From an uncultured virus (IMG/VR IMGVR_UViG_3300044727_000045) (lineage: Duplodnaviria; Heunggongvirae; Uroviricota; Caudoviricetes): 32,112 nucleotides of DNA. The stretch lies in the IMG/VR virus record IMGVR_UViG_3300044727_000045. One strand, written 5' to 3'. The notes below the pieces were generated by a model. It did not search any database. It was not told the origin of the DNA and worked only from the letters and a program-made list of their open reading frames with translations. Numbering within the stretch: position 1 is the stretch's first letter; every line of letters starts with the position of its first letter. This document shows, one piece after another, positions 18,800 through 23,099 of the stretch. The translations under genes and the position numbers were made by a program.

Positions 18800-19144
18800 A
18801 TGACGCAGCCTACTGAGGCCCCCGCACCCCCAACCGTGGACGAGGCTTACGCCCGTCTGCACAAGAGCATCTTGCGCCGTAGGGCGGTGGACCAACTGGT
18901 TGCCGCTATCAAGCGCGACCTGACCAGCCTGCCCAAGACCAGCATCATGGCACGGCGCAGCGTCAAGGTACTGGACTACATGCGCGGCTATATCGCCGCT
19001 GTGGAAGAAGAGCAGGTCCTGGCCGTGGAGGAGTACGAAGCGGCAGTGTATCAGGCCCGCAAGGTGCTGGAGCAGCCAGCCAAGAAAGTGCTGCCAAAGA
19101 AAGGAACCCTTGGCCGTGTCCGAAACGGAACAGCGCCAGCCTGA
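18800..19144 (+). CDS. Hypothetical helical protein
   Basis: GC3-rich ORF downstream of the promoter. Confidence 0.65.
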   Translation: MTQPTEAPAPPTVDEAYARLHKSILRRRAVDQLVAAIKRDLTSLPKTSIMARRSVKVLDYMRGYIAAVEEEQVLAVEEYEAAVYQARKVLEQPAKKVLPKKGTLGRVRNGTAPA

Positions 19145-20285: not shown

Positions 20286-20510
20286 ATGATGGGTTTGACC
20301 CAAGAGCAGCTAAAGCGTCTGGCCTATGGTGCTAGCCATAGCATCATCAATCAGGCATTAGACAATGGTGAACTACCTACCATTGACCTTGACGAGTTCA
20401 TGCCACGGGGCTATGACATGAGTTCTCAGGACTATGATGACCTCCAGGCTACAATGGAAGGTATTGTGTTGAGTGACTTGTGGGAGGAGCAGGCAAAGCG
20501 TGACGTTTAG
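20286..20510 (+). CDS. Hypothetical protein
   Basis: Cassette RBS. Confidence 0.6.
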   Translation: MMGLTQEQLKRLAYGASHSIINQALDNGELPTIDLDEFMPRGYDMSSQDYDDLQATMEGIVLSDLWEEQAKRDV

Positions 20511-20772
20511 AGAATGGATGCTTGAGGCGGACCAGTATCCGCCAGGGCTATGTGTAGACTGTGGCATGTCTGTGCCAGGTGGAGATATCATTTGTGACTT
20601 CTGCAAGGGAGCCTGGCAAACCTACTCCTATACGGCTGGTAGGGACTTACGACAACGAGGATACTCTACTATTCAGCCAGGGGTACAAGAACTTTCGGGA
20701 CAAGACGCCGTGCAACTGGTGTTCCAAGAAGATGCCCCTGATGCACCGCTACGCAATAGCCAAGAAGGGTGA
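20500..20772 (+). CDS. Zn-finger protein
   Basis: GTG after GGAGGAG; CVDC and CDFC. Confidence 0.5.
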   Translation: MTFREWMLEADQYPPGLCVDCGMSVPGGDIICDFCKGAWQTYSYTAGRDLRQRGYSTIQPGVQELSGQDAVQLVFQEDAPDAPLRNSQEG

Positions 20773-20857
20773 ACCCATAGTGTTCGCTGAGGCTGTGTTC
20801 TGTAGCGTAGACTGCTGGCACAAGCGAGACCAAAGCCCTGTCATGCCCCCTCAGTAG
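20561..20857 (+). CDS. MYM/TRASH-like Zn-finger protein (start unclear)
   Basis: CNWC...FCSVDC. Confidence 0.5.
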   Translation: MACLCQVEISFVTSAREPGKPTPIRLVGTYDNEDTLLFSQGYKNFRDKTPCNWCSKKMPLMHRYAIAKKGEPIVFAEAVFCSVDCWHKRDQSPVMPPQ

Positions 20858-20862
20858 GGGGC

Positions 20863-20892
20863 TTGCACCCCAGACCTTCACCCTGCTACACT
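20863..20892 (+). promoter_or_regulatory. Repeat-class promoter upstream of the ORF/tRNA/ncRNA unit
   Basis: TTGCAC-N18-TACACT, AGACCTTCA box. Confidence 0.65.
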
Positions 20893-20944
20893 GTTGGTGG
20901 TTGGGCAGTACGGGCAAGCGTACGACAACTGGAGAGCAGACCAC

Positions 20945-21217
20945 ATGGAGAGGCTCTACCGACATCGCCCATACATGCAAGAGGGCATGTACGTAGTTGG
21001 GGTTAGGCCCAAGTCTTTGGGCGAAGGAGTGGTGGCAGTAGTCTACACGGTAGACTATGCAAAAGCGTGGCAGTTCTGGGATGACAACTTCCAGATGAAT
21101 TACGGTATCTACCAGTGGAGCCGTGGTGGTTTCATATGCGTAGGCCGAAAGATGAAACATAGGTTGGGGCACACCATCTGGGTACCAGTGCCACCAGACC
21201 GCATGAAAACGGCTTAG
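20945..21217 (+). CDS. Hypothetical protein
   Basis: ATG 20945 after GGAGAG. Confidence 0.55.
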   Translation: MERLYRHRPYMQEGMYVVGVRPKSLGEGVVAVVYTVDYAKAWQFWDDNFQMNYGIYQWSRGGFICVGRKMKHRLGHTIWVPVPPDRMKTA

Positions 21218-21498
21218 GAGCAGACATTGTGCAAACAATGCCTAAGTTCTACCATCTGCCCAAGCCACGGGTCGAGCTTCACTCCCTCCCCGTGGTGAGG
21301 TTAGGAGTGTGTATTACGTGGGCATCCCGCTACCAACGGGATGACGCAGCCTGGACCAACGCTGTTGGTAGCAGTTAGTAGTCGGGTTGTAGGGGTCTCG
21401 AGGGCGCGGAACGCTGAGACCTGAAATAAGGTGCGGTGCCGCTTCATGGGGTATCTGGTTACGGGTTTATCCTTTCGCCGTAGTCAGGTACCCCGCCT

Positions 21499-21572
21499 GC
21501 TTCAGTAGCTCAGTTTGGTAGAGCAAACGCCTCTTAAGCGTGAGGTTGTGGGTTCGAATCCCACCTGAAGCA
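21499..21572 (+). tRNA. tRNA-Lys(CTT); CCA not encoded
   Basis: Acceptor GCTTCAG/CTGAAGC, D arm GCTC/GAGC, anticodon loop CTCTTAA, T arm GTGGG-TTCGAAT-CCCAC, discriminator A. Confidence 0.95.
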
Positions 21573-21574
21573 CC

Positions 21575-21776
21575 GGAGAGAATGCAGCTAAAGATGGGAT
21601 ACTGTCACGTAACTACCCATTGCCCTTGGAGGTGGTACCACCAGGGTGACGCAGCCCGTGACGGCATTCTCTCCTTGACTTGGTAGGCATGGTGACCAGG
21701 GAGATCCTGGTACGGAGTTAAATGTGCTCTCATGAAACACCTGCCGAGACTTGGTGGTGCATAGTACCCACCAAGT
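21575..21776 (+). ncRNA. Candidate structured RNA domains in the tRNA trailer
   Basis: Three consecutive closed domains: 21575-21674 (with possible pseudoknot), 21679-21748 (multi-branch) and 21749-21776 (hairpin). Confidence 0.55.
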
Positions 21777-21777
21777 T

Positions 21778-21818
21778 GGACAGGGGGCTGGTGATGCGGC
21801 CCCCTGTCCTTTCTTTTT
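21778..21818 (+). terminator. Intrinsic terminator of the tRNA unit
   Basis: GGACAGGGGGCTG/CGGCCCCCTGTCC plus TTTCTTTTT. Confidence 0.85.
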
Positions 21819-21829
21819 GTCTAAAAACC

Positions 21830-22180
21830 ATGATACCAACACAGCTTCTCTGGGCACTAGGATACAAGGGTGCCGTTATTGTCTTATCCGGTGACTACCG
21901 CAGTAACAGGCACATCATTAAGAAGAGTGGTGTGACACTGTGTGGCATCAAGACCCGTAAGCAGAAAGATATCAGGGTAGACGGTAAGTTCAAAGGATTT
22001 GAGCCAGGGTCTATCGTTGAGGTCTATGGGTTCTATGGTTCTGGCCGCTGCAAAGAGTGCTTGACTACGTACTACAGACGCAGGCTCAGTCCAGATGGGA
22101 ACAAGCTGTACAGGCTGTACCACGCCAGACTCAAGCTGGGATTGCCCCTGCGAACATCTAGGGCTGTACACTGTGCCTAG
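21830..22180 (+). CDS. Hypothetical Zn-binding protein
   Basis: H......TLCG...CKEC. Confidence 0.5.
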   Translation: MIPTQLLWALGYKGAVIVLSGDYRSNRHIIKKSGVTLCGIKTRKQKDIRVDGKFKGFEPGSIVEVYGFYGSGRCKECLTTYYRRRLSPDGNKLYRLYHARLKLGLPLRTSRAVHCA

Positions 22181-22226
22181 CGGCACTAGGTGTGCTGCAT
22201 ACTGAGAAGAAAGGAGGAGAGAGCTT

Positions 22227-22553
22227 ATGAGAAGCCTACGTATTCTGGTAGTTGCAGCGAGTCTTGCCGTTACCGCGCTGATTCCAGCCGCCGTGTCGGC
22301 AGCGGACTGCACCAGTTATCCTGTGGGTAGTGGTGGACGCATGTCGAGCTTGAGCTGTGACAACGGTGTGACGGGTAGCACCTATTGTTACGGTTCGGAC
22401 AATCGCTATTGCAACACGACCTACAGTAATGGAACCAGCGGTTCCACAACGTGGTCCCAGAACGGCAAGTACGGCGATACTACGTATTCCAACGGTAGCA
22501 CGTCTACGACGTACTGCTGGAATCCTAAGTACTGTAGCACCACGTATCCGTGA
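22227..22553 (+). CDS. Secreted small protein with T/S/Y/G beta-hairpin repeats
   Basis: SD AAGGAGG; signal peptide ending VSA; repeated (T)TYSNGxxxxT; six Cys. Confidence 0.75.
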   Translation: MRSLRILVVAASLAVTALIPAAVSAADCTSYPVGSGGRMSSLSCDNGVTGSTYCYGSDNRYCNTTYSNGTSGSTTWSQNGKYGDTTYSNGSTSTTYCWNPKYCSTTYP

Positions 22554-22587
22554 GTAGTGGCGGGCTTTAGCCCGCCTTTCACAAGGA

Positions 22588-22827
22588 GTGAGTGTGATTG
22601 TTGTTCTAGTGCATAAGCCAGATGAGGTGGTAACGCCTGCCTTGTCCCCGTTTGATGGCATTAGTGTCTACGGTATCTACTATGAATCGGAGCATGCTGC
22701 TGTTATCAGCATGGTAGAGACACTGATGCACGAGCACCCAGATTGGGCGTTCGTCACGACCAGCAACCACAAGATTAGTGTGGGTTTCAACGTGGCCCCA
22801 AGGCCGACACCCAAAAAGAGGGACTAA
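22588..22827 (+). CDS. Hypothetical protein
   Basis: SD AAGGAG (start 22588 or 22594). Confidence 0.55.
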   Translation: MSVIVVLVHKPDEVVTPALSPFDGISVYGIYYESEHAAVISMVETLMHEHPDWAFVTTSNHKISVGFNVAPRPTPKKRD

Positions 22828-23099
22828 TGGCATTTCCGACCCAAGAGCAAGAAGAGATGGCCAAGGCTATTTCTCAGTTTGTCAACCGCTACGGCGGCAG
22901 TGCTTCTATCAAAGCATTGGCTGAGGAGCTGGCGAACGACCATCCAACGTTGCAGCAAGGTACCATGCGTCTGTTCGTAGCCTTTGTCAGGGCTATGGCA
23001 GCCAAAGAGTACAGTGATGGACGTAATGAGGCCAGCGTAAATCTGGCCAAGCAATTGGTTGATGAATGGGGCGATGGCCCCTATCTGCCGCTAGTCTAA
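22827..23099 (+). CDS. Phage hypothetical protein (HxTLQQ...DxRNE motif)
   Basis: TAATG coupling; motif recurrent in phage hypotheticals. Confidence 0.65.
   Translation: MAFPTQEQEEMAKAISQFVNRYGGSASIKALAEELANDHPTLQQGTMRLFVAFVRAMAAKEYSDGRNEASVNLAKQLVDEWGDGPYLPLV

Follow-up and report, generated by a model that had tools for sequence, protein, structure and literature searches.

The window analysed here is a 32,112-nt stretch of DNA from an uncultured virus (IMG/VR record IMGVR_UViG_3300044727_000045). It is part of a phage genome and carries genes for DnaE, RecA, thymidylate synthase, UvrD, GIY-YIG and HNH proteins. A non-coding block of about 600 nt runs in the order U, H, tRNA-Lys, B, C, D and terminator (Table 1), and the stop codon of the 90-aa ORF in front of it falls within the first helix of RNA U. 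Element B, to which a sequence-only reading had drawn attention, sits in the variable 3' part of the block, the conserved head of which is U.

Table 1. Features of the non-coding block and its flanks (positions in the window)
Feature	Position	Strand	Remarks
Conserved 90-aa ORF	20945..21217	+	31 protein clusters; no Pfam match; atlas matches <0.9
RNA U	21212..21442	+	four pseudoknots, conserved, no Rfam family
U pk1	21212..21259	+	helices 21212-18/21241-47 and 21220-24/21255-59, inserted hairpin; 2/6 second-helix pairs with two-sided changes
U pk2	21264..21309	+	stem 21264-71/21289-96; 6/8 pairs change on both sides
U pk3	21323..21390	+	hairpin 21323-29/21337-43; loop 21330-36 with 21365-71; outer stem 21346-54/21382-90
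U pk4	21393..21442	+	stem 21393-21400/21415-22; loop pairs with 21433-42
Hairpin H	21448..21494	+	17-bp arms; strain-variable
tRNA-Lys(CTT)	21499..21574	+	discriminator A21572, then CC; no encoded CCA
Element B	21575..21674	+	11-bp closing stem, two-arm interior, two alternative folds (pseudoknotted or nested)
34-codon open frame over B	21582..21686	+	GGAG and ATG within closing stem; probably chance; no Pfam match
21-nt near copy of U pk3	21636..21656	+	18/21 versus 21331-21351
Element C	21679..21748	+	three-way junction, closing helix CTTGGTAGG/CCTGCCGAG
Hairpin D	21749..21776	+	directly 5' of the terminator-like hairpin
Intrinsic terminator-like hairpin and U run	21778..21818	+	terminator scan
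Conserved 116-aa ORF 3' of the RNA block	21830..22180	+	no Pfam match; atlas matches 0.77

DNA nearly identical to the window was present in soil, rhizosphere and freshwater sediment runs. Its UvrD is shared at 76-81% with four viral contigs (L009-L012), two of which are near-complete 90-kb genomes, and the best matches of its RecA among cultured phages stand at 33-40%. No prophage relative was found in the genome contigs searched. A scan of 80 ORFs of at least 130 aa in the complete relative G001 revealed a contractile tail and a 5-hmdU kinase. In G001 (L126 1769-3711), the 5-hmdU DNA kinase adjoins a radical SAM enzyme, a pair that points to hypermodified thymidine. A small ORF at 22227-22553 of the window, also present in L009, has a signal-peptide-like start and a body rich in Gly, Ser, Thr, Cys and Tyr, with no Pfam match.

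RNA U at the head of the block

U is a 231-nt RNA with its four pseudoknots in tandem. All 4 close viral relatives have it, as do all 8 metagenome loci that reach the site; in these counts, L113 and L009 represent one contig, and the locus is alike in L010 and L011. When pk1, pk2 and pk4 were taken together (35 pairs, 7 sequences), 95.9% of the positions were paired and 11 pairs had changed on both sides. The pairing score was equalled by 0 of 500 shuffles and slid controls were 35-48% paired, in a test that is favoured by the structure having been drawn from one member. The invariant loop of pk2, GAGCTTCACTCCCTC, contains CACTCC, which pairs with GGAGTG at 21304-09, and these 6 pseudoknot pairs never vary. 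Since MAFFT misaligns pk3, it was omitted from the covariation test. Among 5 sequences, pk3 occurs with three distinct loop/partner combinations, each loop pairing only with its own partner (-6.3 to -7.6 kcal/mol for own pairs versus -0.5 to +0.7 kcal/mol for cross pairs). These compensatory changes clearly point to U being a conserved structured non-coding RNA.

No Rfam family covers U at the gathering score or at E<=10, and blastn found no match to it in cultured phages. A model of U detected no distant copy in 76 loci of distant UvrD relatives, and 13 of the 17 matches to a U pattern were due to chance. An HDV-like assignment of pk1 was rejected: the helix order is similar, but pk1 has no conserved counterpart of L3, P1.1 or the catalytic C. 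Readings of U as a group I intron, tmRNA or RNase P found no Rfam support and were likewise rejected.

The locus has received insertions in several relatives. In L112 (764-1138), an endonuclease VII ORF lies within U, between pk2 and pk3, with GGAGTGAC on both sides; therefore, U may consist of two domains. In L109 (2591-3004) and a matching stretch of L111, a PD-(D/E)XK (PDDEXK_5) ORF lies between the U trailer and the downstream ORF, an assignment made by scanning the L109 copy and by match for L111. The 3' zone of the block, with hairpins in tandem in L009 and L010 and an inserted endonuclease ORF in each of L109, L111 and L112, appears to turn over fast. Hairpin H resembles two post-U hairpins of L009, and its similarity to the L009 trailer was reached in 4 of 300 shuffles.

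The loops of the post-U hairpins (window 21448-21494; L009 2355-2500; L107) share ATCCT(C/T), which is anti-Shine-Dalgarno-like, and CU-rich sequence recurs in the invariant pk2 loop of U.

Our leading guess is that U may be a nuclease-resistant scaffold that remains once the upstream mRNA has decayed, and that the invariant CU-rich pk2 loop may serve it as a binding surface.

Element B and its neighbours

The sequence-only reading had described B as a pseudoknotted domain starting 2 nt after the tRNA-Lys gene and closed by a perfect 11-bp stem. The start was confirmed, as the discriminator A21572 is followed by CC and then by G21575, and both the sequence and helix enumeration return 11 Watson-Crick pairs between 21575-85 and 21664-74. 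A Watson-Crick helix of at least 11 bp arose in 4 of 3000 dinucleotide shuffles, which places the stem beyond chance; the 32-kb window holds five such 11-bp matches, at four sites. Pair probabilities within the stem were 0.95-1.0. The stem was kept (probability 0.99) when precursors of 322 and 609 nt were folded, in which the tRNA acceptor stem also formed (0.999 and 0.905, respectively). The overall fold of B exceeds chance, with a z score of -3.16 (1/200 shuffles), and its raw MFE ranks 44 of 641 among 100-nt windows. The fold of C and D together is stronger than that of B (z score of -4.16; 0/200 shuffles).

The interior of B is less well defined. The proposed hairpin ATGGG (21594-98)/CCCAT (21616-20) is present. 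The second arm (21620-29/21641-49) exists too, but not with the pairing originally written: A21643 cannot serve both CCA and AGGGTG, and one U is therefore bulged. As for the pseudoknot, TGTCACG (21603-09) and CGTGACG (21657-63) are indeed complementary (6 Watson-Crick pairs and 1 GU pair), but a helix of this size is expected by chance. Shuffling of the 78-nt interior gave a Watson-Crick helix of at least 6 bp in 1230 of 3000 cases and, with GU allowed, one of at least 7 bp in 2276 of 3000. GTCAC has two possible partners (21646-50 and 21658-62), as does ATGGG (21616-20 and 21655-59). The MFE fold (-38.2) is nested and uses the partner set other than that of the sequence-only reading, the nested scaffold of which reaches -32.7, with a further -8.7 for the duplex before any pseudoknot penalty is charged. 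With energies this close, the energy model does not discriminate between a pseudoknotted and a nested interior, and the pseudoknot is no more than a proposal. The centroid structure is nearly open, with no dominant interior fold.

Two further features of this part of the block were observed. The second arm of B contains a perfect 12-nt palindrome, GGTGGTACCACC, at 21631-21642, which could give rise to RNA dimers or form a DNA-binding site. Element C is hammerhead-like in shape but lacks CUGANGA.

Conservation was assessed in metagenome loci reached via the downstream ORF. One of the 9 loci stops short upstream, and 2 of the 8 examined, L106 and L107, carry the tRNA and B. L106 is identical to the window, which probably derives from it, and L107 is about 94% identical locally. 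Relative to L107, differences were found at 0 of 100 positions in B, 1 of 231 in U, 3 of 73 in C and 1 of 82 in D with the terminator, compared with 18 of 56 in H and 23 of 669 in the flanking ORFs. By a by-hand estimate from the flanking-ORF rate, the invariance of B corresponds to a p of about 0.03. In runs X9, X11 and X13, no differences were listed in B, and changes occurred in H, the tRNA and the ORFs. None of the sequencing runs is listed as RNA, and the one that was guessed to be RNA gave no coverage of B. The invariance hints at constraint, in a comparison of few related strains; it could also reflect recent common descent, with U and D plus terminator equally invariant.

Beyond these strains, no counterpart of B was recovered. 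In 9 related contigs, U is followed by one to three hairpins and by neither tRNA nor B, and the complete relatives G001 and G003 lack both throughout (Rfam for the tRNA; B model). The four related records contain no homologue of B, and an exact 19-mer of B had 0 matches in viral contigs. Run over 94 sources (1.59 Mb), the B model picked up B itself, the opposite strand of B and the terminator, and nothing else. Phages and plasmids searched by blastn with B-D gave short chance matches only. Pattern searches were equally unproductive: the shared-motif pattern had 8 matches, 0 of them with a tRNA or B-like context; the 5' pattern of B had 3, all unrelated; the closing-stem pattern had 8, all at AT-rich coding starts with no tRNA and no Rfam family; and the tRNA anticodon-arm patterns had 0 in viral and genome contigs. 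A third occurrence of TGACGCAGCC, at 18801, is an ORF start without structure and was rejected as a related element. The copies of B found are thus confined to near-identical strains, all invariant and with no compensatory change among them, and B alone appears as a single-lineage fold without comparative support.

Against Rfam at the gathering score, the tRNA was found and nothing over B; at E<=10, no family matched B, ribozyme and riboswitch families included. ARAGORN, run at a 75% threshold with introns allowed, found no tRNA-like cloverleaf over B. In the literature, no description of B or U was found, and motif strings led to unrelated papers only. The four supplements of PMC10690425 contained no match to B or U, the alignment files lying outside this comparison; U may be one of the 8495 IMG/VR candidates of that paper. 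The earlier description of B as undescribed therefore stands as far as tested, with Rfam empty over it and homologues only in near-identical strains.

How element B may have arisen and may work

Part of B resembles part of U. Positions 21636-21656 of B and 21331-21351 of U pk3 are identical at 18 of 21 nt. The alignment of B with the U of the window scored 27, reached by 0 of 2000 shuffles, and B showed no match to the U of L108, L009, L010 or L012 (509-2000 of 2000 shuffles). The 21-nt match loses strength when both strands of the whole block are considered (8/2000 shuffles), and a chained B/U alignment was reached in 21 of 2000. TTGGTAG, the pk3 partner, follows both copies on the 3' side, at 21365 and 21680; it occurs at 4 places on the plus strand, one of which is the tRNA D loop. 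Paired with U's partners, the B copy reached -5.2 and -5.3, versus -10.5 and -15.1, respectively, for U's own strand. Local duplication in the tRNA-bearing lineage, followed by refolding, seems the simplest account of the match. The sequence-only reading missed that B belongs to a block headed by U, the apparent source of part of B.

B is best read as a real, separately folding RNA module that is lineage-specific and non-catalytic. We favour, with confidence that is evenly balanced, the view that B is a recently gained, partly duplicated trailer module of tRNA-Lys, without catalytic activity, that would be freed by host 3' processing and shielded by its stem. Directly observed are the location of B, the closing stem, the 18/21 match and the lack of B in relatives that keep U; the remaining steps we infer. 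The block would be read through from upstream genes to the terminator as one transcript; that no sigma-70-type promoter was found in 20500-23000 counts against the model. RNase Z is a 3' endonuclease for CCA-less tRNAs. Excision of the CCA-less tRNA would fall to putative host enzymes, RNase P together with a 3' endonuclease, for instance RNase Z, and would leave a trailer that begins with two unpaired C, followed by the 11-bp helix of B. This stem would hide the new 5' end, prevent pairing of B with the tRNA and insulate the tRNA fold. With the 5' end buried and tRNA pairing blocked, the trailer of about 245 nt (B-C-D-terminator) would survive as a stable small RNA. The putative release during tRNA processing, as proposed in the sequence-only reading, fits the layout of a CCA-less tRNA with B 2 nt behind it and a terminator at 21778-21818, and the released RNA would more likely be B, C, D and terminator together than B alone. 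In Bacillus, a 5' hairpin protects and stabilises RNA (PMC3997798). The 3' half of B would be a local duplicate of U pk3, since refolded, so that any action in trans would most likely consist in binding the protein or RNA partner of U; a partner common to B and U is possible.

Other readings of B were weighed against this trailer module. HDV-like ribozymes have their cleavage site packed against P3 and P1.1. The position of B is that of a theta ribozyme, since G21575 lies 3 nt past the discriminator 21572, and phage RNAs with a G start within 5 nt of a CCA-less tRNA 3' end are described in PMC10879173. That B is a new self-cleaving, theta-like ribozyme trimming the tRNA 3' end is nonetheless most unlikely, and the earlier suggestion of a ribozyme is not favoured by the scans. 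B lacks the nested double pseudoknot of theta and HDV ribozymes (a P1 of 6-7 bp, P2, P3/L3, P1.1 and J4/2) and has no catalytic C; the entire domain is enclosed by its P1, and its phage comes from soil whereas theta comes from gut. A loose HDV/theta descriptor based on the general topology, used with no positive control, produced four matches in one arrangement, all outside B, with a mismatched P1, a GU-rich P2 and no P1.1. The hammerhead motif CUGANGA is absent from both strands of 21200-21830, and core motifs of twister, pistol and hairpin ribozymes were not found within B. Twister, pistol, hatchet, twister-sister and hairpin families gave no Rfam family-threshold score over B, and no Rfam ribozyme appeared at E<=10; B fits none of the known cores. 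The geometry also argues against cleavage at the tRNA junction, which is found where the 11-bp helix opens: G21575 is paired with the final base of B, and the interior is 11 bp away. A two-state switch, in which pseudoknot and nested rod would control tRNA release or terminator read-through, could draw on the mutually exclusive partner sets of ATGGG and GTCAC, with their close energies, and on weak complementarity of B to D and to the terminator loop. It is very unlikely, given that no riboswitch family matched at E<=10 and that both computed folds keep the closing stem, so that neither would alter the tRNA junction or the terminator. Scarcely credible is a folded mini-gene, with the GGAG and ATG of the 34-codon ORF masked by the closing stem: 8 unrelated phage loci do have a ribosome site and ATG concealed by a stem of this 11-bp sequence, but here the GGAG-ATG spacing is only 3 nt, 34 open codons are common by chance, Pfam gives no match and the copies of B show no synonymous changes.

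Two readings accept the fold and dispute its role. B may be a neutral relic, a recent duplication or a spacer captured together with the tRNA, which folds, does nothing and is degraded with the trailer; we consider this unlikely, though not greatly so. Its confinement to one lineage, the relatives that manage without it, the fast turnover of the 3' zone, the lack of a dominant interior fold and a pseudoknot at chance level all suit a relic, whereas a perfect 11-bp stem that begins exactly at the tRNA end, and 0/100 changes relative to L107 beside 18/56 in the adjoining H, do not. It is improbable that B, gained with tRNA-Lys, acts in trans as a decoy or counter-defence RNA on a target of its own (e.g., by titrating an anticodon nuclease or a defence protein that binds RNA). 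The lone tRNA-Lys was acquired together with B, the shape of B is compact with protected ends, and the neutralisation of PARIS that a phage tRNA is reported to achieve (PMC11464382) counts in favour; even at the lowered ARAGORN threshold, however, B shows no cloverleaf, TROVE/Ro60 is absent from the four related records, and the genes that Pfam names in the window and in G001 show no defence link.

A bolder combination, rather improbable in our view, is that U founds a new class of phage RNA with four tandem pseudoknots, that a copy of its pk3 was refolded into B behind a captured tRNA, and that tRNA maturation releases a U-mimicking decoy, switch or ribozyme. If true, the locus would capture the birth of a new functional RNA by duplication.

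Relation to known RNAs

T4 RNAC and RNAD lie in a tRNA cluster. They are late small RNAs without a known role (PMC9697503). Like B, they are small phage non-coding RNAs with ties to tRNA genes, whereas B is a predicted transcript, and neither B nor U has blastn similarity to cultured phages. ROOL and GOLLD are multi-pseudoknot phage RNAs often found near tRNAs, and the GOLLD linker sometimes holds a tRNA (bioRxiv 10.1101/2024.12.08.627333). The U-tRNA-B-C-D block of about 600 nt shares with them the tRNA neighbourhood and multiple pseudoknots, but there is no Rfam or covariance-model match here, and the conserved part, U, is only 231-239 nt (about 235 nt) versus a criterion of >500 nt and usually has no adjoining tRNA. 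Bacterial Y RNAs (YrlA, RF02553) likewise have a long closing stem, a phage context and a tRNA neighbour; B has no RF02553 match, the one match of 16.7 bits being the tRNA D-arm, and its relatives lack a TROVE protein (0/4 related records carry a TROVE/Ro60 gene). In type III toxin-antitoxin arrays, tandem pseudoknots are followed by a terminator and a small ORF. The layout of the block is alike, but the U pseudoknots are not repeats of one unit and Pfam matches no toxin to the ORF downstream. Phage RNAs that are structured, lie near tRNAs and have no assigned function are a known kind, and B and U, as compared here, match none of T4 RNAC/RNAD, ROOL and GOLLD.

The stronger result is U, upstream of B, and the significance of the locus comes mostly from it. 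U, which comes from soil myoviruses of an uncultured 90-kb clade, is a compact RNA with several pseudoknots and covariation behind them; its size puts it within reach of probing and cryo-EM, and it tolerates an endonuclease gene between its halves. B offers an example of how modules may be added beside a captured tRNA.

A separate observation was made in L133-L140, eight unrelated AT-rich phage loci. At 601-710, a conserved gene has its ribosome site and ATG in an 11-16 bp pairing with codons about 30 further downstream that read E-H-S-L, possibly a conserved translation-control hairpin.
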